Below are positions 2,487 through 51,858 of a stretch of 64,000 bases of DNA, piece by piece. A program made the position numbers and the translations under genes. The stretch comes from an uncultured Pseudomonadota bacterium (lineage in GTDB: Bacteria; Pseudomonadota; Alphaproteobacteria; UBA9219): the NCBI GenBank assembly GCA_903919315.1, contig CAIXHP010000026.1, positions 10,428-74,427 of the forward strand. The letters are read 5' to 3'. A model generated the notes under the pieces. It was not told where the DNA came from and searched no databases. It saw only the letters and a list, made by a program, of their open reading frames with translations. Numbering within the stretch: the first letter of the stretch is position 1; the number at the start of each line of letters is the position of its first letter.

Positions 2487-2732
2487 TCAGGGGTTGGGCG
2501 CGGCAGGAGTGGCTTTTTTCATTTTCAAAGCCCAAACCGCTTCAGAAAATTCACCAATGGACTTGATATAACTAGAAACCCAAGCCACAGCATTTTTGCC
2601 GCATTCTCTGAACTCCGCCCGCACACGATCAGGTTCTTGCATACATGCCACACCAGTTGCACCCAACAACACAGCAGCAGCAGCCGAAAGAAACGCCGCC
2701 TTATACCGATAATGCTTATCATCACTCTTCAT
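2487..2732 (-). CDS. Small hypothetical protein (81 aa) with an N-terminal hydrophobic segment ending in a Cys (possible lipoprotein or signal peptide)
   Basis: ORF in a lower-GC stretch downstream of the NrdJ-like gene. LLGATGVAC motif. Weak support. Confidence 0.3.
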   Translation of the reverse strand: MKSDDKHYRYKAAFLSAAAAVLLGATGVACMQEPDRVRAEFRECGKNAVAWVSSYIKSIGEFSEAVWALKMKKATPAAPNP

Positions 2733-2879: not shown

Positions 2880-5030
2880 TCAGCGCCGCTTTTCTCTCTG
2901 TCCCACAACTTCCGTTGCCGGATGCTTCAGCCCCACGGCGCGAGGAGCCACTTTCAGCTTGGTCGCCGTACGCGGCGCGGTCATCTGCGCGGTGGTTGGT
3001 TTGAGCGCCAACGATGCCGGAGTCGCCGGAGGACGCGGTGCGGAGCGCTTCAAAAGTTTCTTACGCGGCAGAATATGGACAGCAGGCGGGGCCATCCGCT
3101 CCGGCGCAACAAACCCGTCGGAACAGAACGTCAAGCTCCGCACACCCAACCGCCACGCCAAAAGTAGAACCTCTGAGCGCCGTTCCGGCATGTTCTCACC
3201 GCCGAGGGCCACAATCAGCCCTGCATCGCCCGTGATAAAGCTCTGCACAGCCGCCGCCATACGAACCTGCGCAGAAGTCCCCGCCAACGCGAAAATTTTT
3301 TCAACGGCTGGCGGAAGCTCGGAAGCCCCAACCACCGTGCCATGGCCGCAACTGTAGGCATTCGCGGCGGCAATATCGGCCTCCGAAAACCCCATATGGT
3401 GCAGTAAGTCAAAGCCGAAGTCGTCCATCTGCTCGTCCGTTATGCCCAAATGCTCGCGGCAAAATTCTTGCCCCAAAATCCATGGCGTAAAGGCATGGCG
3501 GATGTCGTTGACGCGCGGCAAGTAATCTTCAACCCGTGACAGCGCCGCCGCATCGAACCCGCGCTCGCGCAGCACCGAATGATTGACTCCCGGAGCCGCC
3601 ACAAGCGTTCCCGTGCCGAGCGCATAGTCAACGATGCCTTTGATGTCAAACGGGTCGCAACCCGTCTTAGCCAGAGCCAACGGCACGGCGGGGTGGATCG
3701 CGCGGTGATAAAGATCGGGCGCGACCGACCGAGGCCGCACAAGATGGGCCTCCGGCCCGATCCCCTGCGCCGAACAATCGAGGAAAGCCGCAAACTCGGC
3801 CGATGAGAACAACGTTGTCAGATGCAGGTGGCACAACCCATTTTGCTGCGCCAGTTCCACAGCCCTGTCCCACAGCCGCCGCGCTTCGGCTATCACCACC
3901 AAATCGACTCCGGCGGCGATTTCCAACGGCACAGGCAGGATCGAAAGCCGTTCATAGTCGTTGCGCTCGCCATAGGCCGAGCGGCGCTGGTTGCGCAGCG
4001 AACGCATGCGTATCTCGCGCTCGTCAATGAACGCGTGGCAGGGGCCGAGCAATGCGGCCAATTGGGCCGAGGTCGCGACCGCTTCCGCCGTTATGATCGC
4101 GCTGATCCCCGCCGCCGTAGCCCGCGCCGCATCGCCGTCAAAGGGCAGGGCCATCGACATCAACAGCGCGGCAAGATTGCCGTAACCGATAGCCAGAGCG
4201 CGTGACGCGTCGGCAGCGTCCGCCAACTGATCATAATGCAGCTCTAGCAGGATCACCGAAAGCCGCACCGCCTGCTGCAACGCCGGAACATCCAAGCTCC
4301 CGTCGTCGCGCCGTAGCCGGAGCAGGTCGATCATCAAGCGCGGCGCGGTGCTGGCGGGACTTGCCCCCCACTCGGCCTTCGTGTCGGTGAAATCCAATTC
4401 CAGCGCACCACGGCCATTGTCCGCGCGCATAAGCTTCTGCCATTGGCTTTGCAGCGTTGCGTTGCCGTTGCTCAATACCCTATCCAGAGTCGCGTTGCGC
4501 ACAGCAACCGCGCCAACCGAATCCGCCGCACCGACAGTTTCAAAATCAGGCGAGGGAACCGGCGCGGCGGGCGCGGCCATCGCTTGCGGCGCAACGCCAT
4601 AAGCCCAGTTGATCCCTAACCGCGCCAATCGGCGCGGCTCTAAGGCGATGACCCGTTCCGCTAGCAACGCGCGAATTTCGTCATAGAAAATTGAGGCTTC
4701 GGCTTCGTCGGCAAACAATCCCTTTTTCCAACCGGTGTATGTCGCCGATCCGGCCACACGGTCGAACACTTGCTGCGCGCTGTTCTCGTTGGTGACGGCA
4801 GCGCCGGCGCTGCGGCGTTGCCACAACCATGAGGGGAGGGTGTTCTCTTCGATCGGCAAGCGTTGAGTCGGAATGGATCGCGCAAGCGCGCTCACGAAAA
4901 CCTGAATGGCTTCGGCGCTCCAATCGCGCGGCGCACCGACGGGTTCGGTGTCGGCATCCGTATGCGCCTCAAAGCGGCTTTGGTCATAAGGGCTGGTCTT
5001 GTCGGCGGTGAACAGACGTTCCATCAGCAT
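2880..5030 (-). CDS. Class II (B12-dependent) ribonucleotide reductase NrdJ-like protein. It appears truncated and degenerate (716 aa versus about 1200 aa for canonical alphaproteobacterial NrdJ) and has a Pro/Ala/Lys-rich C-terminal tail.
   Basis: N-terminus (RLFT..SPY..LPSWLW..SAQQVFDRVAG..TYTGWKKGLF..FYDE..WAYGV) and C-terminal half (FTPWILGQEFCREHLGITDEQMDDFGFDLLHHMGFSEADIAAANAYSCGHGTVVG) resemble NrdJ, but the central finger-loop/active-site Cys region is missing. Confidence 0.6.
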   Translation of the reverse strand: MLMERLFTADKTSPYDQSRFEAHTDADTEPVGAPRDWSAEAIQVFVSALARSIPTQRLPIEENTLPSWLWQRRSAGAAVTNENSAQQVFDRVAGSATYTGWKKGLFADEAEASIFYDEIRALLAERVIALEPRRLARLGINWAYGVAPQAMAAPAAPVPSPDFETVGAADSVGAVAVRNATLDRVLSNGNATLQSQWQKLMRADNGRGALELDFTDTKAEWGASPASTAPRLMIDLLRLRRDDGSLDVPALQQAVRLSVILLELHYDQLADAADASRALAIGYGNLAALLMSMALPFDGDAARATAAGISAIITAEAVATSAQLAALLGPCHAFIDEREIRMRSLRNQRRSAYGERNDYERLSILPVPLEIAAGVDLVVIAEARRLWDRAVELAQQNGLCHLHLTTLFSSAEFAAFLDCSAQGIGPEAHLVRPRSVAPDLYHRAIHPAVPLALAKTGCDPFDIKGIVDYALGTGTLVAAPGVNHSVLRERGFDAAALSRVEDYLPRVNDIRHAFTPWILGQEFCREHLGITDEQMDDFGFDLLHHMGFSEADIAAANAYSCGHGTVVGASELPPAVEKIFALAGTSAQVRMAAAVQSFITGDAGLIVALGGENMPERRSEVLLLAWRLGVRSLTFCSDGFVAPERMAPPAVHILPRKKLLKRSAPRPPATPASLALKPTTAQMTAPRTATKLKVAPRAVGLKHPATEVVGQREKRR

Positions 5031-5366
5031 ACCGAAACCCGTTTTTCTTCAGTGGCTTACTTGTCCCCGAACCCTGTCGGAGAAAAGTTATCCACAAGAT
5101 GATGTGTTGCATGAATAAATTCGCACAAAATATGGTGTGTTGGAAGCAAAACTTATTCACAAACGGGGGAAGGCACTCAAATTCATGGGGATATCTTTTT
5201 GCTCCTTCACTTCGAAGGCGGAACAAGTCAGGTCTGTTGCTTGGATTCAGCAACGCTCCGGAAATCGAAAATCATTCCGCATCGAACCGCACAAAGCGCG
5301 TTCTGAATCCTTGACCTTCAATCTGTTTTGCATGAGGTTGAGATTGTGATTCCCGATCCTTCGGAT

Positions 5367-5768
5367 ATGTCCATGAGCGAAAGCTTCTCCCTTGTTCGCC
5401 GCCTGTCACAACTCGGAACCCGTATCTATACGAAGTTAAAGGGCGTTTCGGTGGGACAGGATCAATTCGGCAACCGTTATTACCGCGAGCGTCGCACGCC
5501 TTCGGGTCGCCGCGAATCGCGCTGGGTGATCTATGCGGGAGAACCGGAAGCCAGCAAAGTCCCGCCCGAATGGCATATCTGGCTGCACCATATGCGCAAT
5601 CAACCGCTCGAATCCAATAGCGTTTATCACCAGAGTTGGCAAAAACCGTATCAACCGAATCAGACCGGCACCGAGGCCGCCTTTAGGCAACCCGGCCACG
5701 GTCTGAGCAACGAACGACGCGCCAAGGCGACCGGCGATTACCAAACATGGAAGCCACACGACGAATGA
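5367..5768 (+). CDS. NADH:ubiquinone oxidoreductase subunit NDUFA12-like (17.2 kDa) family protein
   Basis: LGTRIYT..KG..VGQDQFGNRYYRE motif, characteristic of the NDUFA12 family. Internal start at MSMSES chosen. Confidence 0.7.
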   Translation: MSMSESFSLVRRLSQLGTRIYTKLKGVSVGQDQFGNRYYRERRTPSGRRESRWVIYAGEPEASKVPPEWHIWLHHMRNQPLESNSVYHQSWQKPYQPNQTGTEAAFRQPGHGLSNERRAKATGDYQTWKPHDE

Positions 5769-5799
5769 AATGGGTCACTGGAAAAAGAGGAACCGTTTG

Positions 5800-6342
5800 A
5801 TGGGACGCAATGCGATTGAAACCGTGCTGGGCGCGGTGGTTCTGATGGTGGCGGGCCTGTTTATGGCCTTTGCCTATTCAAGCTCCGACCTGCAAAAGGT
5901 CGAAGGCTATTCCGTATCGGCCAATTTCCCGATGGTGGACGGCCTCAAGGAAGGCGGCGATGTGAGGGTCAACGGTGTCAAAGTCGGCTCTATCGCCGAC
6001 ATGAGCCTCATTACGGCTCCGGGGCCGAGTCAGTATCTCGTCAACGTGCAGATGACGATCAAGCCCGATGTCAGGCTTCCGACCGACACCATAGCCTTGG
6101 CGGCGACGGAAAGCCTTTTGGGCGGGAAGTACCTGTCGCTCGAAGTCGGCGTGGACGAGGAACTCATCAAAAACGACGGCACCGGACGCATCACAAGGAC
6201 ACAAGCGCCCATGCGGCTAGATGATTTGATTGGTCAGCTGATCTATAGCTCAAAGAAGTCAGACGGCGGCGGAGGGGGTGATAAGGCATCCGCGGCCCCC
6301 GCACCGTCGCCATCGCCCGAGCCGGAGGCCGCGCATCCGTGA
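5800..6342 (+). CDS. MlaD/Mce-family periplasmic lipid-transport domain protein
   Basis: N-terminal TM helix followed by an Mce-like domain (GLKEGGDVRVNGVKVGSI). Gly/Pro/Ala-rich C-terminal tail. Conserved next to the NDUFA12-like gene in alphaproteobacteria. Confidence 0.6.
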   Translation: MGRNAIETVLGAVVLMVAGLFMAFAYSSSDLQKVEGYSVSANFPMVDGLKEGGDVRVNGVKVGSIADMSLITAPGPSQYLVNVQMTIKPDVRLPTDTIALAATESLLGGKYLSLEVGVDEELIKNDGTGRITRTQAPMRLDDLIGQLIYSSKKSDGGGGGDKASAAPAPSPSPEPEAAHP

Positions 6343-6728
6343 GGACGCTGCAACGCTTCTCTCTGCTGACGGGAGCTTTGCTGTCGCTAACGTCCATGGC
6401 GCAGGCCGCTGTTCCCACGGAAAGCCGTCCGGTGGCCGTCCTGCGCGCGCTCGACAAAATCACGGCGCGGGTTGAAGAAGTTATCGTCCCCATCGAACGC
6501 CCCTTGAAGTTCGGGACGCTGATGATCGTCGTTCACACCTGCCGCGTCACGCCGCCAGAGGAAACGCCGGAAGCCGCCGCCTTTCTCGATGTCAGCGAGT
6601 TTAAGCCCGGCGAGAACGGAGCGACGATTTTTCGAGGCTGGATGTTTGCCTCCAGTCCCGCGCTGTCGGCCATGCAGCATCCGGTTTATGACTTATGGGT
6701 GACGGGGTGCAAGGATTCGGCCCAGTGA
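6339..6728 (+). CDS. Periplasmic DUF2155-like protein
   Basis: Signal peptide ([11 protein letters not shown]), about 100-aa domain. ATGA overlap with the upstream MlaD-like gene. Typical third member of this alphaproteobacterial trio. Confidence 0.55.
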
Positions 6729-7357
6729 TCCCATGTGACCGTGTCGGGTTTGGCTAAGGCGTGGCCCTGCTCGGCCGCAATTCCCAACAAGTGGCGGTAA
6801 TTTTCGCGCGTGAGTTCCATCGTGCCGAACTGGCTGAGATGATCAGTCTGGAACTGCGTATCGAGCAGCGAGAATCCTGAGGCGCGGAGAAGGGCCACAA
6901 GATACACCAGCGCGATTTTGCTGGCATCCGTCGCTCGGCTGAACATGCTCTCGCCAAAAAACGCGCCGCCGAGGCTGACGCCGTACAATCCCCCCACCAG
7001 CTCGTCGCCGCGCCACGCTTCAACGCTGTGCGCGTGACCTTGCCGGTGAAGCGTGGTGTAAAGCTGAATAATTTCTTGATTGATCCACGTCAATTCGCGG
7101 TCAGGCGCCGGAGCCGCACACGCGCGGATTGTGTCTCCAAAAGCAGTGTTCAGACGGATCGCGTAAGGCCGTTGGCGGATCGTCCTCCGCAAGCGGCGCG
7201 GCACATGAAAAGCGTCATCCAAAGGAATAACCGCCCGCACCGGCGGATCATACCAACGCAACTCTCGCGACTCCGCGCTCTCCGCCATCGGAAAAATTCC
7301 GGCGGCGTAAGCGCGCAGCAGGATGTCGGGGGTGAGAATGAAGGTGCGGCTGGACAT
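6686..7357 (-). CDS. aat: Leucyl/phenylalanyl-tRNA--protein transferase
   Basis: [15 protein letters not shown]. and the GESMF motif. Start taken at MSSRTF so that it abuts accC with a 2-nt gap. Confidence 0.85.
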
Positions 7358-7359
7358 GC

Positions 7360-8700
7360 TTACTTCAACCCCAAGAACCCCTCCAGCCAATGAATGTCAT
7401 AGTCGCCGTTGATAAAGTCCGGCTGGCTGATGATGCGGCGGTGGAGCGGTAGGGTTGTGTCGATGCCGCCTATGACGAATTCTTCCAGCCCGCGCCGCAG
7501 ACGCAAAAGGCATTCGTTGCGGTTGGAGCCGTGGACGATCAGTTTGGCGATCATGCTGTCGTAATGCGGCGGCACGCGATAGCCGTCGTACAGCGCGCTG
7601 TCCACGCGAACGCCAAGGCCGCCGGGAGCGTGAAAATCGCTGACTTTGCCGGGCGAGGGCGTGAATGTATCCGGGTTTTCCGCGTTGATCCGGCATTCAA
7701 TGGCATGACCGGTGAAAACGATCTCGCTCTGCTTATAGCTGAGCGGCAAGCCCGCCGCGACGCGGATTTGTTCGCGCACAAGATCCACGCCGGTGATCAT
7801 CTCGCTGATCGTGTGTTCGATCTGCAAGCGCGTATTCATCTCGATGAAGTAGAACTTTCCGTTTTCATAAAGAAATTCAATCGTGCCGACTCCGCGATAC
7901 CCAAGATCGCGCACCACCTTGGCGGCTAGTTCACCGATCTTGTTCCTTTCGTCGGCGTTAAGGCCGGGGGAGGGGGCTTCCTCGATGACCTTCTGATGGC
8001 GGCGTTGGATCGAACAGTCGCGTTCGCCAAAATGCACCGCGTTGCCGTGCGTGTCGCCAAGCAGTTGGACTTCGATATGGCGCGGACGGGTAAGGTATTT
8101 CTCCATATAGACTTCGTCGTTGCCAAAAGCGGCAAGGGCTTCGCCCCGCGCCAGCTGATAGGCCTCGACCAAGTCTTCAGGACGCTGCGCGACCTTCATG
8201 CCTTTGCCGCCGCCGCCCGCCGCCGCCTTGATCAGCACGGGATAGCCGATTTCTTCGGCAACCTTAGCCGCCATCTCCACCGTCGGAACGCCGCCGTCCG
8301 AGCCGGGGACGGTGGGCAAGCCCAAAGCCTTCACCGTCTGTTTGGCCGTCACCTTATCGCCCATCAAGCGGATGTGTTCGGGGGTGGGGCCGATAAAAGT
8401 GAAACCGTGTTCCTCGACCATTTCCGCGAACTGCGCGTTCTCTGACATAAAGCCGATGCCCGGATGGATCGCGTCCACGCCCGTGATCGCCGCCGCCGTC
8501 AAAATCGCCGGAATATTGAGATAGCTGTCCCGCGCCGCCGGAGGCCCAATGCAAACGCTCTCGTCCGCCAACCGCACATGCATCGCGTCGGCATCCGCCG
8601 TGGAATGCACCGCCACGGTATGAATCCCCATCTCGCGGCAAGCCCGATGGATCCGCAAAGCAATTTCGCCACGATTGGCAATCAGGATTTTTTCAAACAC
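7360..8700 (-). CDS. accC: Acetyl-CoA carboxylase biotin carboxylase subunit
   Basis: [17 protein letters not shown]... ATP-grasp fold, 446 aa. Confidence 0.95.
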
Positions 8701-8715
8701 GGGCTATTTCCTTTG

Positions 8716-9594
8716 TCATTGATACGGCTTCGCAACACGATAATAAGCCTTTGGAGCCTTTTCATATTTCTTGAGAATGCCGTCAACAGCTCCATCGACC
8801 GCCATTTGCTTCACAACACCATCCAGCAAGCTCTGCAATTTGAACTCGCCCTTGTTGACCAGAAGAACAACAGGGTACGCATGCAGCGGGCGATCAAGCC
8901 CGATACCACGCAGCGTTCCCGGATTTTTCTCTAAATACTCATAGGCGATTTGATTTTCCAAAAAGGTAACATCGGCTTTGTGATTGGCGACGTTCAGCGG
9001 GTTAAATGTGTAGTCCGATGTCGACGGCGCGGACAGGACGGAAGCGTTCGGAAACTCTTCCCGAGCCAACACGCTGCCGATGCTTCCATCAATAGCGGAA
9101 ATTTTAACGTCCGGCGCGTTGATCATGTGTACGTCCGCATCGAAACGATGATCGTCCGGTCGCACCCAAGCGGTAATGCCCGCATAAAAGGCTGGCCCGA
9201 CCAGCTCTGCATTCTTGATTTCCTGCTCAAGACTAAACCCAGCCCCACAAAAAGCGTCATAGCGTCCGAACTGAAGCCCCGTGAAGTATGTTGCCCAAGT
9301 AACCTCTTCGACCCAATCAACTTTCAGCCCCAGCCGCTTTGCCGCTTCCTCGGTGATGTCATACATAATGCCCGACAGCTTGCCTGTGTTTGGGTCTTTA
9401 ATGGTATGGGGGGAACTGACAACGTAGCTGCATCGCAGCGTATTGTTCTTCACCACCTGATCATAGGCCGTTTGGCTGCCGAGGCTCGTCACAGCTGGTG
9501 GCGACAAAGGGTTTCTCTGAATCATCTGAACAGCCAAAGTGGCCGCCACCGCGATTATGGCCGTCAGAAGATATTGGCTGGTTCTGCTGGACAT
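8716..9594 (-). CDS. Periplasmic solute-binding protein, family 3 (amino-acid ABC-type SBP fold). No permease or ATPase genes adjacent.
   Basis: Signal peptide. LRCSYVVSSPH..D.NTGKLSGIMYDI..LGLKVDWVEE..GRYDAFC..PAFYAGITAWVRPDD. Paralogous to 56789-57640 and 57664-58563. Confidence 0.75.
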   Translation of the reverse strand: MSSRTSQYLLTAIIAVAATLAVQMIQRNPLSPPAVTSLGSQTAYDQVVKNNTLRCSYVVSSPHTIKDPNTGKLSGIMYDITEEAAKRLGLKVDWVEEVTWATYFTGLQFGRYDAFCGAGFSLEQEIKNAELVGPAFYAGITAWVRPDDHRFDADVHMINAPDVKISAIDGSIGSVLAREEFPNASVLSAPSTSDYTFNPLNVANHKADVTFLENQIAYEYLEKNPGTLRGIGLDRPLHAYPVVLLVNKGEFKLQSLLDGVVKQMAVDGAVDGILKKYEKAPKAYYRVAKPYQ

Positions 9595-9717
9595 GGTCAG
9601 GCGGCTCCTCTGTTCGACTCTTAATGCGCGACCTGTTCACAGTGGGTTGTTGTGATAGCCACGAGCTGCAGTTTGCTGGTCGCCAATAGTCCTTGTGCTA
9701 GAGATCGATCCTTCGCG

Positions 9718-10167
9718 TTACGCGATCACCACCAGCGTCTCGCCGAATTCGACCGGCTTGGCGTCGGCGGCGGGGATTTCGGCGATGGTTCCGGCTTTGG
9801 GAGCCTTGATGGGGTTCATCACCTTCATGGCTTCGATGATCAGCAGCGTATCGCCCGCCTTAACCTTGTCTCCTACCTTAATGAAAGGCGGCGCGTTGGG
9901 GGCCGGGCCGAGATACACCGTCCCTACCATCGGCGAGGTGACGGCTGTGCCGCTCGGCGCCTCGGGTTTGGCTTCAGCCGCTGCGGCAGCAACAGGCGCG
10001 GCCGCCGCAGCGGCGGGAGCCGCCATCTGGACAACGGAAACCTGCGCGGCCACGCGAATGCGCTTGTCGCCTTCGGCATATTCGATTTCGCTCAGTCCTG
10101 TATCTTTCAGCAATTCAGCCAATTTGCGGACAAATTTCGTATCAAGGTCAAATGTACTCATGATCAT
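9718..10167 (-). CDS. accB: Biotin carboxyl carrier protein of acetyl-CoA carboxylase
   Basis: C-terminal biotinyl domain EAMKVMN. Ala/Pro-rich linker. Confidence 0.9.
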   Translation of the reverse strand: MIMSTFDLDTKFVRKLAELLKDTGLSEIEYAEGDKRIRVAAQVSVVQMAAPAAAAAAPVAAAAAEAKPEAPSGTAVTSPMVGTVYLGPAPNAPPFIKVGDKVKAGDTLLIIEAMKVMNPIKAPKAGTIAEIPAADAKPVEFGETLVVIA

Positions 10168-10631
10168 TTCCTAGTGGATGAAGAAATCAGTTTCGCCATG
10201 CGGCGCAGCGCAAAAGCGTAGCCGTCAATGCCCATGCCGCTGATGGAGCCGACGGCGACGGTCGCGACGTAAGAATGATGACGGAATTCCTCGCGCGCAT
10301 GAACGTTGGTCACATGCACTTCGATTACCGGCACGGCGGCGATCTTGATGGCATCGAGCAACGCGATCGAGGTATGCGAATAGGCTCCGGCGTTGATGAC
10401 GATGCCTTGAAACGCCGTCCGGCTTTCCTGAATCCATGTGACCAGTTCGCCTTCGTGATTGCTTTGGCGGCAGGTGACACTTAGCCCCAGTTCGGAGGCC
10501 GTCTTGCGGCACAGTTCCTCGACATCGCCAAGCGTGGCGGAGCCGTAAAGATCCGGCTCGCGCACGCCCAGCATGTTCAGATTGGGGCCGTTCAGCACCA
10601 AGATCTGCGATGATGTATTCACGGCCTGCAA
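10164..10631 (-). CDS. aroQ: 3-dehydroquinate dehydratase, type II
   Basis: ILVLNGPNLNMLGVREP..YG..TL; 155 aa. ATGA overlap with accB. Confidence 0.9.
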   Translation of the reverse strand: MQAVNTSSQILVLNGPNLNMLGVREPDLYGSATLGDVEELCRKTASELGLSVTCRQSNHEGELVTWIQESRTAFQGIVINAGAYSHTSIALLDAIKIAAVPVIEVHVTNVHAREEFRHHSYVATVAVGSISGMGIDGYAFALRRMAKLISSSTRK

Positions 10632-10645
10632 CCTGCTGTGTGACG

Positions 10646-11404
10646 TTACTTTTTGGCGTTCTGGCGCGCCGTATCCACGGCTTGCTTCATCTGATCGTAC
10701 TGCATAGCGCCGGGATAGACCTGCTCGCCGATCACAAAGGTCGGCGTGCCGCGCGCGCCGATTTGGCTGCCAAGCTCCAGATTGGCCTTGACGATCTTTT
10801 CGATGGACTCGTCGTCCATGTCCTTCTTCAGCTTCTCAAGGTCAAGGCCGGTATCCTTGGCCACCTTGAGAACGATGTCCTCGGTCAAATGCGCTTTGGT
10901 CGCCATCAGGGCGTTATGGAACGCCTCATACTTGTTCTGACGAACGCTGGCCAAAGCCGCCCTGCTGGCTTGAACCGAGCCTTCACCCAAGATGGGGAAT
11001 TCCTTGTAGATCAGCTTAACATTCTTGTCGGTTTCCATCAATTTAACGATGGCTTCATGCGCCATTTTGCAATAACCGCACTGATAGTCGAAAAATTCCA
11101 CCATCGTGACGTCGCCCTTAACGTTGCCGACGACCGGAGCGTTCGCGTCATTGAAAATCTTGTCGCGGCTGGTGGACAAGGCCTTTTGCCCTTGACTGGC
11201 AATGTCCTTCTCCTCACGGCTTTGGGCTTCATGAGCCGCCTTGATGACCAGATCGGGTTCTTCCTTGGTCAGCAGACTGCGGACGAGTTCCTTAACTTCC
11301 GCCTGTTGGGCCTCGGTCAACGCGGCGGGAGCATCGGCGGCGAACGCGAACGCAGGCATCAGGATGATGGCGGTGGCGCTAAGGTACTTGGCGATGGCGT
11401 GCAT
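10646..11404 (-). CDS. DsbA-family periplasmic thiol:disulfide oxidoreductase
   Basis: Signal peptide, CGYC thioredoxin active site, 252 aa. Confidence 0.8.
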   Translation of the reverse strand: MHAIAKYLSATAIILMPAFAFAADAPAALTEAQQAEVKELVRSLLTKEEPDLVIKAAHEAQSREEKDIASQGQKALSTSRDKIFNDANAPVVGNVKGDVTMVEFFDYQCGYCKMAHEAIVKLMETDKNVKLIYKEFPILGEGSVQASRAALASVRQNKYEAFHNALMATKAHLTEDIVLKVAKDTGLDLEKLKKDMDDESIEKIVKANLELGSQIGARGTPTFVIGEQVYPGAMQYDQMKQAVDTARQNAKK

Positions 11405-11462
11405 TCATAAACTCCCACAGCAGATGGTTGAAGGGCCAGAGAACCAAGTTTTGACCCGCAAG

Positions 11463-12899
11463 TCAACGATGGCCCTCGGTATCGATACTCAACTTAATAT
11501 CTTGGGCGCGAAGCCAATAAGGTGTTGATTTCGGCAGAACTTTTAGCGCTCTATCCGCGAATTGCTGCGCTTCCTTATCCGCTCCCCGCGCTACGGCTTC
11601 TTCGGCCAGAGCGTAGGAGACTAAACCCTCATACTGTTGATCTTTTGTTAATTCCGCCTTTTTCCCCCATGCGGAGGCCAAAAACCGCCACGTTTCGGGT
11701 TCCCGCTCCTCTAACCGATTCGCCTCGGTCAGTTGGCGGATGGCGAGGTCAAGATTGTCGGCGTTCTTGCTCTCCAGTAAGGCATGGCCATAGGCGACGC
11801 GGAGGAGGGCCGAATCGGGCAGGAGATCGACCGCTTTTTTGTAGAGCGCTACAGCTTCGTCGACCCGGCTGTTCTCGAACAGCATCTGCGCCTTTAACTC
11901 GTAAAAAAACGGATTGTCCGGCTCTTCACGCAACAGTCCATCCGTCAAGGCCAAGGCGCGGGGCAGCTGGTTGGTTTGGTAAAAAGCGATGGCGCGGGCG
12001 TAACGAGCGGAAATGCGGGGATCTTTGTCGGTCGTGCGCAAGAGCGCGGTCTGCGGTTGGAGGAAGCCCATAAGCTTAGCCTTCATGCGCTCATGCATAA
12101 CCTGAAATTTCGGGTCTTCATGAGAGTCCGCATACGGCGAGGTTTCCAAATGGTGCGCGACAGCGTCAATACGGTCTTGCGTCAAAGGATGGGTGCGCAC
12201 GTATTCAACCTGCCGGTCGCTGGGGAGCAATTCTTGTCCCGCGAGCTTTTTCATAAACGCCAGCATGCCGTTTGACGAAACACCCGCGCGATCCAGAAAC
12301 GACAGTCCGGCCGCATCCGCCGAGGATTCCTGGGCGCGACTGAAACTTAGCAAACCGCGCTCGGCAACATTTTGCGCTCCGCTGATCGCCGCCGCGGTCG
12401 CCTGTCCATTGCCGCTGGCGACACCCGCCGCGACACCCAGCACCATGCCAAGGATGGCTTGGGCGGAGGCGTTGCGCATGGCCTCGCTGCCGCGCACCAG
12501 ATGGCCGCCCGCGATATGGCCGGTTTCATGGGCGATGATTCCGGCTAACTGTTCCGGACTCTCGGTCATTTGCAAAAGACCGGTGAAGAAAAACTCGTTC
12601 ATGCCGCCCGCGACGAAGGCGTTGACGGCGTTGCTCTTGATCAGGGCGATGCTCACGGCGTTGGGGTCAATGTCGGCGGCGCGAAAGATGGGCGTGGCCA
12701 GCGTCCGCAGGTAATGCTCGATCTCGGCATCGCGGATAAACTCAAAGTGAGGGGCGCGTTGCGCCTGTGCGGGAAGGGCAAAGCCAGCGCACAACGTCAG
12801 GATCAGGGCAAGCCGCCATGCCCCTCTGCGCCAAGCGTTCGGGCGCGATTTCTGGGCAAACGCGCGTCGGAACGCGGCAAACATACGATGAGACCCCAT
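11463..12899 (-). CDS. M48-family Zn metallopeptidase with C-terminal TPR repeats (BepA/YfgC-like)
   Basis: HETGH motif. Signal peptide after an alternative start at MFAAF. TPR-like C-terminal half. Confidence 0.8.
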   Translation of the reverse strand: MGSHRMFAAFRRAFAQKSRPNAWRRGAWRLALILTLCAGFALPAQAQRAPHFEFIRDAEIEHYLRTLATPIFRAADIDPNAVSIALIKSNAVNAFVAGGMNEFFFTGLLQMTESPEQLAGIIAHETGHIAGGHLVRGSEAMRNASAQAILGMVLGVAAGVASGNGQATAAAISGAQNVAERGLLSFSRAQESSADAAGLSFLDRAGVSSNGMLAFMKKLAGQELLPSDRQVEYVRTHPLTQDRIDAVAHHLETSPYADSHEDPKFQVMHERMKAKLMGFLQPQTALLRTTDKDPRISARYARAIAFYQTNQLPRALALTDGLLREEPDNPFFYELKAQMLFENSRVDEAVALYKKAVDLLPDSALLRVAYGHALLESKNADNLDLAIRQLTEANRLEEREPETWRFLASAWGKKAELTKDQQYEGLVSYALAEEAVARGADKEAQQFADRALKVLPKSTPYWLRAQDIKLSIDTEGHR

Positions 12900-17095: not shown

Positions 17096-18130
17096 TCACA
17101 AAAACATCTGCTTTACGTTTATACTGGAACGCTGGCCAAGCGCGTCCCAGTTGGCGGTCAGCCATGCCTCGGCCGTACGGCGGCCGAGGTCTTTCAGATG
17201 CAGCAGAAAGTCCATATCCGTATTGATCTTACTTGCGGAACCAAGCGCGCGCATCTCATCCTCAGCCGCAATAACGTGAATGAACATATGTTTCAGCCGC
17301 GCTGCCTCTTCGTTTTTCAGTTGATCCTCTTCGATGAGCTTCTGGACAAACGCGATCGCGCGCATCTCGCTCATCAGGGAAGAGTTAAAGCTGATTTCAT
17401 TGATGCGGTTGATAATCTCCATTGGCGAGTCGGGCGTGCCCGAACGCACCATAGGGTTAATCTGCACAAGCACCACGTCAGGTGTCGTGCAATGGTAGAT
17501 CAGCGGGAATACGGCGGGATTGCCGACATACCCGCCGTCCCAGTAGGGCACGCCATCGACCGGCACGGCTTGAAAGGCGAGGGGCAGACACGCCGAGGCC
17601 ATCAACACGTCAAGGCTCACTTCCTCACGCCTAAAAACGCGGATTCGCCCGGTCTCAACGTTCGTTGCCGAGACGAATAGCTTTATCGCGGGAAAGGCGC
17701 GAATAGCCTCAATATCGAGGATATCTTCCAACAGGTCGCGCAACGGATTGAGGTTGAACAGATTGGTTTGATAGGGCGACATCATCCGCTGCATCATGTC
17801 CGTCATCATCGTGGCGGGTGAGTTGTCGGTGTTCCAATTGCCGAGCATCTGGTCAACGACGCTTCGGTGCGGCAACCCAAAACTTCCCAGTGCGCTGACA
17901 CCGGTCCAGAACCGCTCCAGCATCTCCCGCGCCCCGTCCGCACCGCCTGTGGCATAGCCGTTCAACAGGACGGCGGCATTCATGGCTCCGGCGCTGGTGC
18001 CGCTGATACCCTCGATCCGCAATCGGTTGTCCTCTTCCAAGAGCCGATCAAGAACGCCCCAAGTGAATGCTCCGTGGCTCCCCCCGCCCTGAAGCGCGAG
18101 ATTGACGCCTTTGACCGTCGTCCCTGACAT
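17096..18130 (-). CDS. Patatin-like phospholipase family protein
   Basis: GGGSHGAF oxyanion motif, GTSAGA serine hydrolase motif, DGG catalytic Asp. Confidence 0.85.
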   Translation of the reverse strand: MSGTTVKGVNLALQGGGSHGAFTWGVLDRLLEEDNRLRIEGISGTSAGAMNAAVLLNGYATGGADGAREMLERFWTGVSALGSFGLPHRSVVDQMLGNWNTDNSPATMMTDMMQRMMSPYQTNLFNLNPLRDLLEDILDIEAIRAFPAIKLFVSATNVETGRIRVFRREEVSLDVLMASACLPLAFQAVPVDGVPYWDGGYVGNPAVFPLIYHCTTPDVVLVQINPMVRSGTPDSPMEIINRINEISFNSSLMSEMRAIAFVQKLIEEDQLKNEEAARLKHMFIHVIAAEDEMRALGSASKINTDMDFLLHLKDLGRRTAEAWLTANWDALGQRSSINVKQMFL

Positions 18131-18382
18131 GTGAACTCCCTGAAAACAACGCGATCGTCACACAAACCGACAATTACATTAACGAAGTCTTTATTTTTCG
18201 CGGCACTTTGACCGACAGAAGATATTTTTTCGCAACATTCAAACACGAGGCTACACCATTGATATTCAGGTGGAAATTTCTTGACGTTTTCACTCCGGTT
18301 GTGGATAATAGTGCAATCGCCGCGAGCTCGGTTTTATGGCGCGTCGCTTCTTGAAATCCATTAGAAAAAGAAGTGGTACAAC

Positions 18383-45600: not shown

Positions 45601-48444
45601 TCAAGCCCGCTTTTTCGTCCGTAGGCCCCTGCGTTCCAAATAAGGGGCCAGATAGCGGGCGGTGTAACTTGCGGCCACCGAGGCCACATCCTCCGGCGTG
45701 CCGCTGGCGACGATTTGACCGCCGCCGTCGCCGCCTTCGGGGCCGAGGTCGATGATGTGGTCGGCGGTTTTGATGACTTCAAGGTTGTGTTCGATCACGA
45801 CCACGGTATTGCCCTGATCGACCAGCGTGTGCAGTACCTCAAGCAGTTTTTCCACGTCGGCGAAGTGCAACCCCGTCGTCGGTTCGTCGAGAATGTAGAG
45901 CGTCTTGCCTGTCGCGCGGCGCGACAGTTCCTTCGCCAACTTCACCCGCTGCGCCTCGCCGCCGGAAAGTGTGGTTGCGGCCTGCCCGATTTTGACATAG
46001 CCAAGCCCGACACGCTCCAGCGTCGCCATCTTGTCGCGGATCGACGGCACGGCGGCAAAGAACAAAGCGCCTTCCTCAACCGTCATGTCCAGAATGTCGG
46101 CGATGGACTTCTCGCGGTAGGTGACTTCGAGCGTCTCGCGGTTGTAGCGCTTGCCGTGGCAGGCATCGCACGTTACGAAGACATCCGGCAGGAAGTGCAT
46201 TTCGATCTTGATAACGCCATCACCCTCGCAAGCCTCGCAGCGTCCGCCTTTGACGTTGAACGAGAACCGCCCCGGCCCATAGCCTCGCGCCTTTGATTCA
46301 GGTAAACCAGCAAACCACTCGCGGATCGGCGTAAACGCCCCCGTATAGGTGGCCGGGTTCGAGCGCGGCGTGCGACCGATGGGCGATTGATCGATGTCCA
46401 CAATTTTGTCGATATGCTCGATGCCTTTCAGCGCGTCATGCGCTCCCGGAATTTCACGGGCGTTGTTGAGCTTCTTCGCCAAAGCCTTGTAGAGCGTTTC
46501 GATCACCAACGTCGATTTTCCACCGCCCGACACGCCCGTAACGCAGGTGAACGTGCCGAGGGGAAAACGCACATTGATGTTTTGCAGATTGTTTTCGCGC
46601 GCGCCGATCACTTCAAGCCATTTGCCCTTATGACCGCCCCGCCGCGTGGCCGGAAGGGGGATTTTCCGAACGCCGCTGAGATATTGCGCCGTGATGCTGT
46701 CCGGATTGGCCATAACTTCATCGGGCGTACCCGCCGCAATGACATGACCGCCATGCACGCCCGCGCCCGGCCCCATGTCGATGAGGTAGTCGGCGGTACG
46801 AATGGCATCCTCGTCATGCTCGACCACCAGAACCGTGTTGCCGAGATCGCGAAGGCGCTTCAGCGTGGCCAGCAAACGGTCGTTGTCGCGTTGATGCAGC
46901 CCGATCGAAGGCTCGTCCAGCACATACAGTACCCCCGTGAGGCCGGAGCCGATTTGCGAGGCAAGGCGAATACGCTGGCTCTCGCCGCCCGACAACGTGC
47001 CGCTGCCCCGCGCCAAGGTCAGATATTCAAGCCCGACATTGTTGAGAAATCCCAGACGGTCATTGATTTCTTTAAGCACCCGCGCCGCGATTTCGCGTTG
47101 TTTGGGTGTCAGGCGCGGCGACAAACCTGCAAACCACGCGCCTGCCGCCTTGATCGAGAATGCGGTTACCTCGCTGATGTTTAGCCCATCAATTTTGACC
47201 GCCAGAGCTTCCGGCTTCAAACGCTGCCCGCCGCACACGTCGCAGGGCTTGCTGGCCTGATAGCGCGACAATTCCTCGCGCATCCAATTGCTTTCGGTGG
47301 TTCGCCAACGACGCTCCAGATTCTTGAGAACCCCTTCAAACGGCTTGTCGTGTTTATAGGTATGGTTGCCGTCCTGATAGGTGAAAACGATTTTCTCGTC
47401 GCCGCTTCCGTGCAGGACAATCTGGCGAAAGCGTTCGTCCAAATCTTTCCACGGCGTCGCCATATTGGCTTTATAGGCGCGGCAGAGGGCCGTGAGAATC
47501 TGCATATAAAAGGTCTTCCACGGCGCAATCGCTTCGTCCGACAGGCTGAGGTTTGTGTCGGGCACCACCAGCGCCGGATCGAAATACAGTTTTTCGCCCA
47601 ACCCGTCGCAGGCCGGACACGCCCCGTGCGGATTGTTGAACGAAAACAAGCGCGGCTCGATCTCGTCAATCGTGAAGCCGCTGACGGGGCAGGCGAATTT
47701 GGCGGAGAAGACCAGATGCTTGTCCGCGCCCACGACTTCGACAAACAACAGTCCGTCCGCCAGTTTCAACGCCGTTTCGACGGAGTCCGCGAGACGGTTG
47801 CCGAGGTCGGGCTTGACCACCACGCGATCCACGACGACGGCTATATCGTGCTTCAGCTTCTTATTGAGAGTGGGCGCGTCTTCGATGTCGTAGATTTCGC
47901 CGTCGATTTTGACGCGCTGGAAACCTTGCTTGCGCAAGTCGTTCAGTTCCTTGCGATACTCGCCCTTACGGCCGCGCACGATGGGGGCGAGGAGGAGGAG
48001 CTTGGTACCCTCCGGCATCGCCTTGATGCGATCCACCATCTGAGTCACGGTCTGGCTTTCTATGGGCAAGCCCGTCGCGGGCGAGTAAGGCACGCCGATA
48101 CGCGCGAACAGCAACCGCATATAGTCATAGATTTCGGTGACGGTGCCGACCGTCGAACGCGGATTGCGCGATGTCGTCTTTTGCTCGATGGAAATGGCGG
48201 GCGAGAGGCCGTCGATGCCGTCAACGTCCGGCTTTTGCTGCATCTCTAAAAACTGCCGCGCGTAGGCCGACAGGCTTTCGACATAGCGCCGCTGCCCCTC
48301 GGCATAGATGGTGTCAAAGGCCAGCGACGACTTCCCCGAACCGCTCAGACCCGTGATGACGACAAGCCGGTCGCGCGGCATCGTCACGTCGATGTTCTTG
48401 AGATTGTGTTCGCGCGCGCCGCGCACATGAAGCGTCTGTTGCAT
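45601..48444 (-). CDS. uvrA: Excinuclease ABC subunit A
   Basis: 947 aa. Two ABC ATPase modules and Zn-finger cysteines. Confidence 0.95.
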
Positions 48445-49097: not shown

Positions 49098-49576
49098 GAT
49101 ACGGACCCTTTCACAAGCTTCATTTGCAACCCAACACGGCCGGGAAAACGACTGGTTTTTCTCTGCGCTATGGCGTGGGCGCATTCGTGGCCACTGCGCT
49201 CGACGGACATACCCAAACCCAGCCTCCGGCACAACCTCAAGCCGTGTTTCGCGTCTATTTTTAGCCTTTAAAGCGTTTCGCTCCAGAGACGAATTTATCC
49301 CCCAATCCTGTGGATAACTCTGTTGGTAATCGTCGGAAAAGGGCCAAGACCCCGCCCGAAAGCTGGACTTTTAGCCTATTGCTTAAAATATAGGCAATTA
49401 TACTTAACCTATTGGAATAAGCTGATGATTTTGTGTTCACAACGTGGCAAGGCCGACGAAATCATCATTTTGCCGTATTTTAAGGCGGATTCGCGATTCC
49501 TGTGTACAAAGGACTCGCGTGACGACTGCATTCCAGCACAAGTCAAGACAGAAAATACATACTTACTAAAAAAAAG

Positions 49577-50323
49577 TTAAGGCAACCTGACCGAGGACGG
49601 AGAGAGCAAATGCGCCCCTCCGTCCACCGAAATGATGGCTCCGGTCATACCGACATTTTCCATGACAAAACGGACGGTTGACGCAACTACCTGAGGAGTC
49701 GTCTCAACCTTTAGTGGCGTGGCCGCGACCAGCGAGTCGAAGTGCGTCTGCGACTGGCGCGGGTGGATGAGGGTAGGGCCGGGGGCCACGGCGTTGACGC
49801 GCAGGCGGGGCGCATAGCGCAGCGCCATGGCGAGGGTTGCTTCTCGAAGAAGTTTTTTGCTTGCGGCATAGGCTCCGAACGTCTCTGGCGCGCTGGTGCC
49901 GTCCAAAAGATTGACGACAGCGCCAACGGTATCTTTCGGCAGTTGTTGAAACAAATCTTCGGTCAAGCGAATGGGCGCGAGGGCGTTGATTTGCCGATGG
50001 CGCAAATGGTCGGGGTCATGCGTATCGCGCTCGAACAAACACGCGTTGTTCACGAGCGCGGCGAGGGGGCCGCAGGTCTCGACGACGGAGGGGATCAACT
50101 TTGCCACCGCCTCCGGGTCGGCCAAATCGCACGACACCACCTGCGCCATGCGGCCGGTGGCGCGTATCTCTCGCGCTAGAGTCTCAGCCTCCACCCCCGA
50201 AGCATGGGCGTGGATCACGACATCCCAACCCGCCGCCGCCATGTCTAAGGCGATCACACGCCCCAGACGTTTGGCTCCGCCGGTGATGAGAACGCTCGCG
50301 CGGCGGGCGGTCATAGGGGCCAA
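49577..50323 (-). CDS. Short-chain dehydrogenase/reductase (SDR) family oxidoreductase (pteridine-reductase-like)
   Basis: VLITGGAKRLG Rossmann motif, NNA, YxxxK (YAASK). Confidence 0.8.
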   Translation of the reverse strand: MAPMTARRASVLITGGAKRLGRVIALDMAAAGWDVVIHAHASGVEAETLAREIRATGRMAQVVSCDLADPEAVAKLIPSVVETCGPLAALVNNACLFERDTHDPDHLRHRQINALAPIRLTEDLFQQLPKDTVGAVVNLLDGTSAPETFGAYAASKKLLREATLAMALRYAPRLRVNAVAPGPTLIHPRQSQTHFDSLVAATPLKVETTPQVVASTVRFVMENVGMTGAIISVDGGAHLLSPSSVRLP

Positions 50324-50333
50324 GCCTCCCGGC

Positions 50334-51104
50334 TCATGGTTTCCCGTCCCCGGCCTTGTCGGAACGCTTGGGGCCGGTGATGAGCGCCGAGAGAACGCCG
50401 TGCCATGTGCGAATTTCCTGCTCGGTCATCTCGGCGCGTTGCAGCATATTCTGCAAACTGCGGGTCATGGTGGGACGCATGGCTTCGGCCACAAAGAACC
50501 CCGCCGACTCCAACTCGCTTTCAAGACGACGATAAAAATTCAGATACTCGTCGCGCGTGGCCGGAGCGCTGTGGCCACGATGGGTCTGGTCGGAGGGTGT
50601 CTGATCCTGCGCCTGATACCACTCATACCCGATCAGCAAAACGCATTGCGCCAGATTGAGCGACATGAAGTCCGGGTTCAGCGGAATGGTGATCTTGGCG
50701 TTGGCGAGGACGATATAGTCATTGATCAGCCCGGTGCGCTCCGGCCCGAACATAACGCCGACACGCTGGCCCTCCGCCGTTCGCGTCACCATGTCGGGGA
50801 TCGCGGCGCGAGGGGTCATAATCCGGTTCACCATATCGTGCGAACGCGACGTGGTAGCGTAGACATAGTTCAGATCGGCCACGGCCTCCTCGACGGTGTC
50901 ATACAGCTTGGCCTCGTTCAAGATATAGTCCGCGCCCGACGAAGCCGCCGCCATACGCTGCCGATGCACCTCGCCCAAAGGCCACGGATCGCGCGGCTTA
51001 ACAATACGCAGCTCCCTCAACGCGCAATTCGCCATAGCGCGCGCCGTCATGCCGATGTTTTCGACAAGCTGGGGGTGGACAAGGATGATGGCAGGTTGGG
51101 TCAT
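50334..51104 (-). CDS. SpoU/TrmH-family RNA 2'-O-methyltransferase (TrmJ-like)
   Basis: LVHPQLVENIGMTARAMANCAL SPOUT N-terminal motif, about 250 aa with a C-terminal extension. Confidence 0.75.
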   Translation of the reverse strand: MTQPAIILVHPQLVENIGMTARAMANCALRELRIVKPRDPWPLGEVHRQRMAAASSGADYILNEAKLYDTVEEAVADLNYVYATTSRSHDMVNRIMTPRAAIPDMVTRTAEGQRVGVMFGPERTGLINDYIVLANAKITIPLNPDFMSLNLAQCVLLIGYEWYQAQDQTPSDQTHRGHSAPATRDEYLNFYRRLESELESAGFFVAEAMRPTMTRSLQNMLQRAEMTEQEIRTWHGVLSALITGPKRSDKAGDGKP

Positions 51105-51144
51105 AGGATCAATCGGTTCGAGAAGCAAAACACGACCTTAGCAC

Positions 51145-51178
51145 ATAAAAAAACGCCCGCGCGAGGCGGGCGTTTTTG
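51145..51178 (-). terminator. Rho-independent terminator (ACGCCCGC gcgag GCGGGCGT flanked by A- and T-tracts), downstream of the 51190-51858 gene
   Basis: Perfect 8-bp GC stem plus U-tract on the minus strand, 12 nt after the stop. Confidence 0.7.
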
Positions 51179-51189
51179 CAGGAACACGT

Positions 51190-51858
51190 TTACTTAGGTG
51201 TGGCGACTCTGGCAAGCAACCCGGCCAAATACTCTCTACGAAACGGTATTAGCGTCTTCGCAGCAGCCACATTATTGGCTCTAGCTTCCTCTGAGGTATC
51301 AAAGCCTTTTTTAGCGGAAATATCTGCCACGGTTTTGTTACAGATGTCTTGAGCCGCTGTTGCATAAAAAACAGCATTGCCAAGATCCATGGGCAGATCA
51401 CCCTTATACGGCTGACAGCCCGTTGTGTCATAACTGTCCTTTTTAGCAGGAGGACTACACGTTAAGGCAACCGCGTCACGCTCTGGCGGAAACAACATGA
51501 CGAGGGTGTTCTTATCGTTTGTTGCGTCAACCGTTACGGCTACCAAAGTGCCGTCAATCTTTGACAGGCTAAGAGGACGGTCGAGCGCTTTGCCATATCC
51601 GGAAATGACATAAGAATAACCGTCAAGGCCAACATCGCGCCCTGCCGTACCCGTATCACTGGAATCGAGTTTGATGCCGCAATTGTGTTCAAAGGTACTT
51701 TTCTTGATGTATCCTGTGACTTTCAGAAAACTAGGATATTGATCCACCGACGCAACCTGAGCCCCCAGCTCCTGCTGTTCGCCCGCCTGCGCGCCCCCCC
51801 CTGCCACCAACGCAGCCGCAAAGGCAAAAGAAGACCACTTACCTGCACGATTGATCAT
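51190..51858 (-). CDS. Secreted hypothetical protein (222 aa, signal peptide, 4 Cys)
   Basis: N-terminal AFAAALVAGGGAQAGE signal-like region. Lower-GC gene body. Own terminator. Confidence 0.5.
   Translation of the reverse strand: MINRAGKWSSFAFAAALVAGGGAQAGEQQELGAQVASVDQYPSFLKVTGYIKKSTFEHNCGIKLDSSDTGTAGRDVGLDGYSYVISGYGKALDRPLSLSKIDGTLVAVTVDATNDKNTLVMLFPPERDAVALTCSPPAKKDSYDTTGCQPYKGDLPMDLGNAVFYATAAQDICNKTVADISAKKGFDTSEEARANNVAAAKTLIPFRREYLAGLLARVATPK

Follow-up and report, generated by a model that had tools for sequence, protein, structure and literature searches.

The 64,000-nucleotide stretch analysed here (the window), from contig CAIXHP010000026.1 of an uncultured alphaproteobacterium, carries on its minus strand a 716-amino-acid open reading frame (ORF) that, judged by homology and chromosomal position, is a descendant of the long-form class II ribonucleotide reductase (RNR) NrdJ, and that is predicted to have no adenosylcobalamin (AdoCbl)-dependent nucleotide reduction activity. 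It is very probable that the gene is a conserved, dead orthologue with a selected function, and probable that catalytic capacity was lost in the common ancestor of a Micavibrio-related clade in which the gene was retained as a pseudoenzyme. Full-text literature searches returned no description of a bacterial RNR pseudoenzyme, and this conserved one is apparently undescribed so far. A preliminary description, made from the letters of the stretch, had proposed an RNR-like protein without its central catalytic segment; the ORF that it reported is real, all of the conserved blocks that it quoted were found, and an identical protein (P0001) is present on five public contigs.

2880..5030, minus strand: coding sequence of the NrdJ-derived pseudoenzyme, 716 aa, with its stop codon at 2880..2882 (ORF list and family alignment)

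Homology to NrdJ was recovered with several approaches. First, in Pfam searches PF08471 matched residues 29-125 (E = 3.5e-12) and PF02867 matched partially, with residues 264-467 aligned to positions 269-444 of a 523-position profile, both above cut-off; together with the ancestral genomic position described below, these homologies place the protein in the NrdJ lineage. Scores against longer models fell below their cut-offs, with 346 bits against 1737 for PRK07562, the NCBIfam model of long NrdJ, and 157 against 859 and 59.5 against 400 bits for PRK06556 and TIGR02504, respectively, which are models of functional NrdJ. Second, alignment to the NrdJ structure of R. sphaeroides (PDB 7b9q) gave two blocks, pairing residues 29-147 with residues 39-168 of the chain and residues 255-639 with residues 519-914. 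Both homologous blocks of the preliminary description therefore stand, but not with the lengths given for them, since the N-terminal block is about 147 aa rather than 170 and the C-terminal block about 385-410 aa rather than 350. Lastly, an AlphaFold2 (AF2) model computed with the family alignment had a predicted local distance difference test score (pLDDT) of 81 and a predicted template modelling score (pTM) of 0.81, with disorder confined to residues 154-172 and 640-716, and the best structural match of this model in Foldseek was 7B9P (E = 2.6e-34, template modelling score 0.76). A tblastn search with a true 1218-aa NrdJ found no NrdJ fragments elsewhere in the window and none in the other reading frames, the latter as had been noted.

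The position of the gene also bears on its origin. In all 25 loci with flanking DNA, the short gene is divergent from an adjoining NDUFA12-MlaD-DUF2155 operon, and aat, accC, accB, aroQ, dsbA and an M48 peptidase gene come next wherever the contig is long enough; NDUFA12 lies upstream of the short gene, and glyS or other genes lie downstream. In more than 25 further loci from Alphaproteobacteria, among them those of Skermanella, Arenibaculum, Stella, Desertibaculum, Hyphomicrobiaceae and Methyloceanibacter, this slot holds full-length nrdJ. Because true nrdJ is found in an identical syntenic slot, the short form is an in-place descendant of nrdJ, and the earlier suggestion of a paralogue or a domain rearrangement gives way to a positional orthologue. 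Full-length nrdJ at orthologous loci had also been named as a possible sign of recent decay; nrdJ is indeed found there, but the reduction is ancient and the gene is under selection.

The wider gene order can be described in its own right. The block M48 peptidase-dsbA-aroQ-accB-accC-aat, followed by DUF2155-MlaD-NDUFA12 on the opposite strand and then by nrdJ (5328-12899 in the window; loci L001-L082), is conserved from the M48 peptidase gene to nrdJ across many alphaproteobacterial orders, and the NDUFA12 operon is in every case transcribed away from nrdJ or its dead descendant.

The protein is composed of segments that are retained, reduced or replaced relative to long NrdJ:

4590..5030, minus strand: N-terminal domain, residues 1-147, aligning to residues 1-172 of R. 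sphaeroides NrdJ
4515..4589, minus strand: Ala/Pro-rich linker, residues 148-172, replacing about 230-260 NrdJ residues (MAFFT, 7b9p profile)
4347..4514, minus strand: residues 173-228, a diverged remnant from the end of the first half-barrel (hhalign, MAFFT and HMMER profile against 7b9p)
4341..4367, minus strand: deletion scar, residues 222-230 (GASPASTAP), in the place of the 17-residue finger loop
3114..4346, minus strand: second half-barrel with the helical insert specific to long NrdJ, residues 229-639 (7b9q 519-914)
2883..3113, minus strand: basic C-terminal tail, predicted disordered, residues 640-716, replacing the TSCPD (IscU-like) domain and the Zn ribbon

The loss of catalytic elements was assessed by a motif census and alignment of 57 distinct short-form proteins and 50 true long NrdJs from related loci. 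The finger-loop motif NxCxE, which contains the thiyl-radical cysteine, occurred in all 50 long forms and in none of the 57 short forms, and the same distribution was obtained for the betaA cysteine motif [AS]CF[IVL], for SKT[IV]N, for YRDGS and for the Zn ribbon. APTGT (49/50 long forms) and TSCPD (46/50) were likewise absent from every short form, and the betaF motif CNLxS occurred in one of the 57 as a single match at an unrelated position; stray regular-expression matches among the short forms numbered two, at irrelevant positions. Short forms contain a mean of 7.5 cysteines per protein, none of them invariant, compared to 22.8 in long forms. The finger loop and the ten-stranded barrel have been treated as universal RNR features, with an NPCxE-type finger-loop motif in 3175 of 3347 class II sequences; the betaA redox cysteine, the helices alphaA/alphaB of the dimer and both specificity loops (1 and 2) are located in the first half-barrel (PMC9669993). 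The short form thus lacks the complete ten-stranded barrel, the finger loop, the redox cysteine pair, the ligand motifs and the C-terminal reductant module expected of a functional NrdJ, and with all catalytic motifs missing in 57/57 proteins the earlier proposal of a catalytically dead RNR-like protein appears sound.

The N-terminal domain has the invariant motifs IEENTLPSWLW, QVFDRVAG and WAYG in common with true long NrdJ, and it contains many of the 64 columns that short and long forms both conserve. After WAYG, residues 173-431 of 7B9P (about 259 residues) are represented by only about 29 positions of the family profile, and in the MAFFT alignment the block between WAYG and NNSVR is missing in all short forms, so that about 230-260 residues of the first half-barrel are gone. 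The lost block includes the HACFIQ cysteine motif as well as GSGTG, SGGG and GGTTRRAA blocks; by inference from the published fold, HACFIQ would correspond to strand betaA, and the alphaA/alphaB helices and loops 1 and 2 would also lie within the deletion. The linker that takes its place is variable in sequence across the family and has AF2 pLDDT below 50 at residues 154-172. A middle segment of about 170 aa had been called unrelated to NrdJ, which proved to be an overstatement: only about 25 residues (148-172) are a novel linker, and approximately residues 190-254 are a diverged homologous remnant. Within the remnant the family retains the motifs NxTIDAIL, W197 and FxDTxAEW, and the segment matches the part of NrdJ just before the finger loop, with FTDTKAEW (family FxDTxAEW) aligned to NrdJ YDTTINDW and, beyond it, APRLMIDL (family APRxMLDL) aligned to NrdJ CNLASLNL. 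The AF2 model places strands at residues 175-177 and 209-214, and for residues 173-189 the homology is ambiguous, as MAFFT and hhalign disagree.

At the scar, the 7b9p segment 'irgsnpcseymflddta', which forms the finger loop with its NPCxE thiyl-radical cysteine, appears as an insertion relative to the family profile and as a 17-column gap in the MAFFT alignment, and the finger loop is therefore missing as first described; the betaF cysteine would also be expected at this site. The second half-barrel is predicted with pLDDT mostly above 85 across residues 229-639, including the helical insert at approximately residues 440-600. Its ligand motifs have been replaced: APTGT by TLFSSAE (3795..3815, minus strand), SKTIN by DAGLIVAL (3204..3227, minus strand) and YRDGS by FCSDG (3114..3128, minus strand). 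Over the aligned regions as a whole, the short forms show relaxation at 126 columns that the long forms conserve. The C-terminal Cys pair is absent, and a basic tail stands in its place, again as first reported. This tail has pLDDT of 28-39 and a loosely conserved motif KPKAxxRxVSLK; across the family, tails have a mean length of 67 aa with 15.8 K+R against 2.4 D+E and a net charge of +7 to +20, compared to a mean net charge of -11 for the body of the protein.

A word-indexed search recovered 39 clusters with 35-53% identity, all of 629-746 aa and all with the same pair of Pfam domains, and an exhaustive profile search of 1.84 billion representatives recovered about 27 full-length clusters at 50% identity, beyond which true NrdJs appeared as two-stretch matches. 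The family alignment has about 50 invariant columns, including N179, D183, W197, F214, D216 and W221 of the central remnant. The ratio of nonsynonymous to synonymous substitution rates (dN/dS; Nei-Gojobori) was 0.11 overall, with two Micavibrio metagenome-assembled genomes (MAGs) as the least saturated pair (dS 0.84); by region, this pair gave 0.056 in the tail, 0.07 in residues 173-254 and 0.12 in both the N-terminal part and the C-terminal half. An architecture kept in about 27 clusters and dN/dS of about 0.1, a sign of purifying selection that is seen in each segment, bear out the earlier view of an evolved in-frame variant rather than a recent pseudogene. In a neighbour-joining tree the short forms are monophyletic, and their internal divergence (0.60) is about twice that of true NrdJ (0.27).

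Carriers of the short form are MAGs labelled uncultured Rhodospirillaceae, Alphaproteobacteria, Micavibrio sp., M. aeruginosavorus and 'Bdellovibrionales', and the NCBI annotation of family members is 'hypothetical protein'. The taxonomic labels within the family are misleading because NCBI taxonomy (taxid 213485) files Micavibrio under Bdellovibrionota; the members labelled 'Bdellovibrionales bacterium' (L008, L014) are probably Micavibrio-like Alphaproteobacteria.

Less-reduced dead forms are also present at the locus in related lineages. A 917-aa protein (P0066; L082:6956-9709) keeps part of the first half-barrel and has lost the finger-loop cysteine and the C-terminal domains; its gene has the syntenic slot and the promoter of the short form, with NrdR sites and a DnaA box, including ACATCATCTTGTGGATAA. 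An 819-aa protein (L076, 9812-12271) in the same slot has the barrel deletion and keeps the TSCPD domain, a 1031-aa protein (P0069; L081:167-3262) combines the barrel deletion and a Lys-rich linker with an intact TSCPD domain and Zn ribbon, and the barrel is likewise deleted in the variants P0085, P0125 and P0157. In the distance tree, P0066, L076 and the other intermediates do not come out as sisters of the short clade, and their order is left unresolved; their tie to the short clade comes instead from shared synteny and promoter architecture. The less-reduced forms suggest a stepwise reduction from enzyme to pseudoenzyme, and the size series at one locus (1200, then 917/1031/819, then about 700 aa) offers an unusually clear picture of such a transition.

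Upstream of the gene we identified candidate regulatory sites that are shared across the family:

5142..5161, minus strand: conserved upstream element TGTGAATAAGTTTTGCTTCC (family consensus cTGTGAaTAagTTTTTCTTT), in which TGTGAATAA fits the relaxed DnaA-box pattern TTATNCACA
5123..5138, minus strand: predicted NrdR box 1, ACACCATATTTTGTGC, with 13/16 consensus and 6/6 key positions
5092..5107, minus strand: predicted NrdR box 2, ACACATCATCTTGTGG, separated from box 1 by a 15-nt linker, the starts of the two boxes being 31 bp apart
5088..5096, minus strand: perfect DnaA box, TGTGGATAA on the gene strand and TTATCCACA on the plus strand; it shares positions with the right arm of box 2, and a conserved CTTT comes after it

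An NrdR site consists of two partially palindromic 16-bp boxes with a 15-16 bp linker and the key positions C4, A6, A8, T9, T11 and G13, of which C4 and G13 are critical (PMC13584703). The tandem score of 25 obtained here is the only one of at least 22 on either strand of the window, with the next independent site scoring 20. Tandems of this type were found in 24 of 25 family promoters with a spacing of 31-32 bp, and the two boxes are better conserved (1.28 and 1.31 bits) than the inter-box spacer (0.49 bits); in box 1, all six key positions are present in 23-24 of the 24 promoters. The promoters of true nrdJ have comparable tandems, and the predicted operator is therefore inherited. The right arm of box 2 continues into a conserved TGTGGATAACTTT, and a perfect DnaA box on the gene strand was present in 25 of 26 short-form promoters compared to 1 of 49 true-nrdJ promoters; the background frequency was 0.032 per kb. 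At 23 nt upstream of box 1 there is a second conserved element, TGTGAATAAGTTTT, and the 25-nt 5' flank has a mean of 1.04 bits compared to 0.49 in the inter-box spacer. The promoter thus retains the predicted tandem NrdR operator of its ancestor and has, in addition, a clade-specific perfect DnaA box. An Rfam search at gathering thresholds found no riboswitch upstream, with only a tRNA matched, and sigma-70 and terminator scans gave nothing above shuffled expectation.

Three perfect DnaA boxes occur in the window, compared to 0.17 expected. The other two (both TTATCCACA) are at 18300-18308 on the minus strand, just upstream of a patatin-like phospholipase gene (17096..18130, minus strand), and at 49309-49317 on the minus strand, in the gap between uvrA (45601..48444, minus strand) and a gene at 49971..51197 on the plus strand.

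Regarding the enzyme that supplies deoxynucleoside triphosphates (dNTPs) in these organisms, M. aeruginosavorus ARL-13 has been described as having a full set of nucleotide-metabolism genes (PMC3189940), and its annotation includes NrdB, the small (beta) subunit of class I RNR, and NrdR (GMV_988). When the window and the 25 family loci were scanned by tblastn and for motifs, neither another RNR nor nrdR came up, which says nothing about the remainder of those genomes. A comparison by gene length and by neighbours gave no confident match to the short form among the ARL-13 rows listed; a 2142-bp gene, GMV_901, was ruled out because it has the wrong neighbours.

Beyond the loss of catalysis, we infer a regulatory or scaffolding role, for which the following scheme can be proposed as the most economical. 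In short-form organisms, deoxynucleotide synthesis would be carried out by a class I RNR, and its takeover presumably freed the gene from catalysis, so that only a non-catalytic function of the accessory parts was kept. This function would be carried by the N-terminal PF08471 domain, the second half-barrel and the long-NrdJ helical insert. The remnant would be transcribed upon dNTP demand or replication start under the control of NrdR and DnaA, and the newly gained polybasic disordered tail would attach the acidic body to a polyanion (DNA or RNA being the likeliest), making the protein a replication-coupled scaffold or regulator. We advance this specific nucleic-acid-tethered, replication-coupled role tentatively, as a possibility that is less likely than not. 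In its broadest form, the proposal would be of the first conserved bacterial RNR pseudoenzyme, with a hidden accessory-domain function, wired to NrdR and DnaA and tethered to the nucleoid or replisome, acting as a replication-coupled regulator or scaffold of dNTP supply in Micavibrio-like predators; this is a speculative combination that we think possible rather than likely.

Several observations weigh against this scheme or the reading beneath it. The short forms diverge about twice as fast as true NrdJ, so the constraint on them is relaxed, though clear, and the AF2 model of a seven-strand partial barrel is silent on the stability of such a barrel alone. The attribution of catalysis to class I draws on one cultured relative with one annotated beta subunit, and an annotation of the class I large subunit was not found among the ARL-13 annotation rows listed. 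Binding of DNA by the tail would follow from its charge, and the tail motif matched no Pfam entry and no known family. Box 2 keeps C4, A8, T9, T11 and G13 and has T at position 6 in 21 of the 24 promoters and A in none; a non-A at this position reportedly weakens binding in E. coli (PMC13584703). The DnaA box overlaps an NrdR half-site, and part of its conservation could therefore stem from NrdR. The T at position 6 and the overlap with the DnaA box may mean that NrdR binding is weakened, or that NrdR and DnaA compete at the half-site.

Among other explanations, the one that survives best, although we consider it improbable, is that a small ligand such as AdoCbl or a nucleotide is still bound by the retained half-barrel and accessory domains, so that the protein would sense or regulate B12 or dNTP status, perhaps through an effect on NrdR or the class I RNR, rather than serve as a nucleic-acid-tethered scaffold. 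In its favour, a predicted NrdR operator is still found in front of the gene, and the 64 columns identical in short and long forms include blocks with no known catalytic role (YDS..R, RNHRRAAYGE). The cobalamin site of class II RNRs lies toward the C-terminal half of the barrel, which also counts in favour of this explanation. However, the active-site and cofactor-face motifs APTGT, SKTxN and YRDGS are lost in 57/57 proteins, the protein no longer has the barrel half expected to enclose the adenosyl group, and the specificity-site elements (alphaA/alphaB, loops 1 and 2) would fall in the deleted segment according to the published fold (PMC9669993); a ligand sensor would also leave the conserved polybasic tail unexplained.

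We give very little credence to the possibility that the short form is part of an active reductase, with the missing half supplied in trans as in the split enzyme NrdJa/NrdJb, or with an unrecognised radical site. Split class II RNRs do exist (PMC9669993), what remains of the protein is well ordered in the AF2 model, and regulation of the RNR type is kept, as far as predicted sites indicate. However, the retained half is itself without substrate and cofactor motifs in 57/57 proteins, which argues against trans-complementation; no conserved cysteine substitutes for the thiyl or redox cysteines, no NrdJ-like fragment was found in the window or beside the gene in the 25 loci, and the known split falls after the barrel rather than inside it (PMC9669993). 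Least credible of all is a decaying pseudogene with a chance open frame, or an assembly or frame artefact, which would fit the full-length nrdJ at the orthologous locus of relatives, the faster divergence and the bare 'hypothetical protein' annotation, but which we rejected on dN/dS that stays near 0.1 region by region (the tail and the remnant next to the linker among them), a 630-750-aa open frame in 57 distinct sequences from independent assemblies, the roughly 50 invariant columns, promoter elements conserved while the inter-box spacer drifts and the identical protein on five contigs.

A retained NrdJ-derived pseudoenzyme can be compared with several known systems. The long dimeric NrdJ (PRK07562; 7B9P/7B9Q) is its direct ancestor, and the two have in common the PF08471 domain, the second half-barrel, the helical insert, the chromosomal slot and a predicted tandem NrdR operator of the same kind. 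In contrast to long NrdJ, the short form is without about 230-260 residues of the first half-barrel, the finger loop, both redox cysteines, APTGT/SKTxN/YRDGS, TSCPD and the Zn ribbon, and it has gained the polybasic tail and the promoter DnaA box. The nearest concept is provided by the RNR large-subunit homologues of betaherpesviruses (M45 of murine cytomegalovirus, MCMV, and UL45 of human cytomegalovirus, HCMV), which lost catalytic residues and were retained under selection in a non-enzymatic role; the likeness is that of a dead, retained and repurposed RNR alpha homologue. The viral proteins are class I R1 homologues with a full-length barrel, substituted residues and an added N-terminal host-interaction motif, whereas the short form is bacterial and class II-derived, with half of the barrel deleted and a basic tail at the C-terminus; beyond the RNR fold, the two have no sequence relationship.

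The split NrdJa/NrdJb of Pseudomonas aeruginosa resembles the short form in having the IscU-like/Zn-finger module off the barrel polypeptide (PMC9669993). NrdJa keeps a complete barrel and the finger loop and is active with NrdJb, whereas the barrel of the short form is truncated, and no nrdJb-like partner was found adjacent to it among the neighbouring genes of the family loci. The family NF005401 (PRK06948), a 'ribonucleotide reductase-like protein', is also bacterial and annotated as RNR-like, and it gave a weak local match at residues 245-339 (29.1 bits against a cut-off of 906), a score that leaves the short form outside this family; its 604-position profile has no PF08471-type match reported, and it differs from the short form in length and architecture.

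RNRs are among the most intensively studied enzymes, and it is close to certain that counting this gene as an RNR in annotation or metabolic reconstruction would be wrong for Micavibrio-like bacteria. The family also suggests, though no more strongly than that, that the accessory domains of long NrdJ may hold a function separable from catalysis. As the short form is a natural separation-of-function allele, such an accessory function is directly testable; if it exists, other Alphaproteobacteria would possess this moonlighting function as well, masked within their active NrdJ.

Two further features of the locus can be noted. A gene for an SBP_bac_3 solute-binding protein (292 aa; 8716-9594, minus strand) sits between accC and accB in the window, and since accB and accC are directly adjacent in most related loci, it looks like a local insertion. 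Between the short gene and glyS lies an 81-aa ORF (2487-2732, minus strand) that has no Pfam match and is called as a gene on public contigs; its hydrophobic, signal-peptide-like start ending in Cys (…LLGATGVAC) suggests that it may encode a small lipoprotein.

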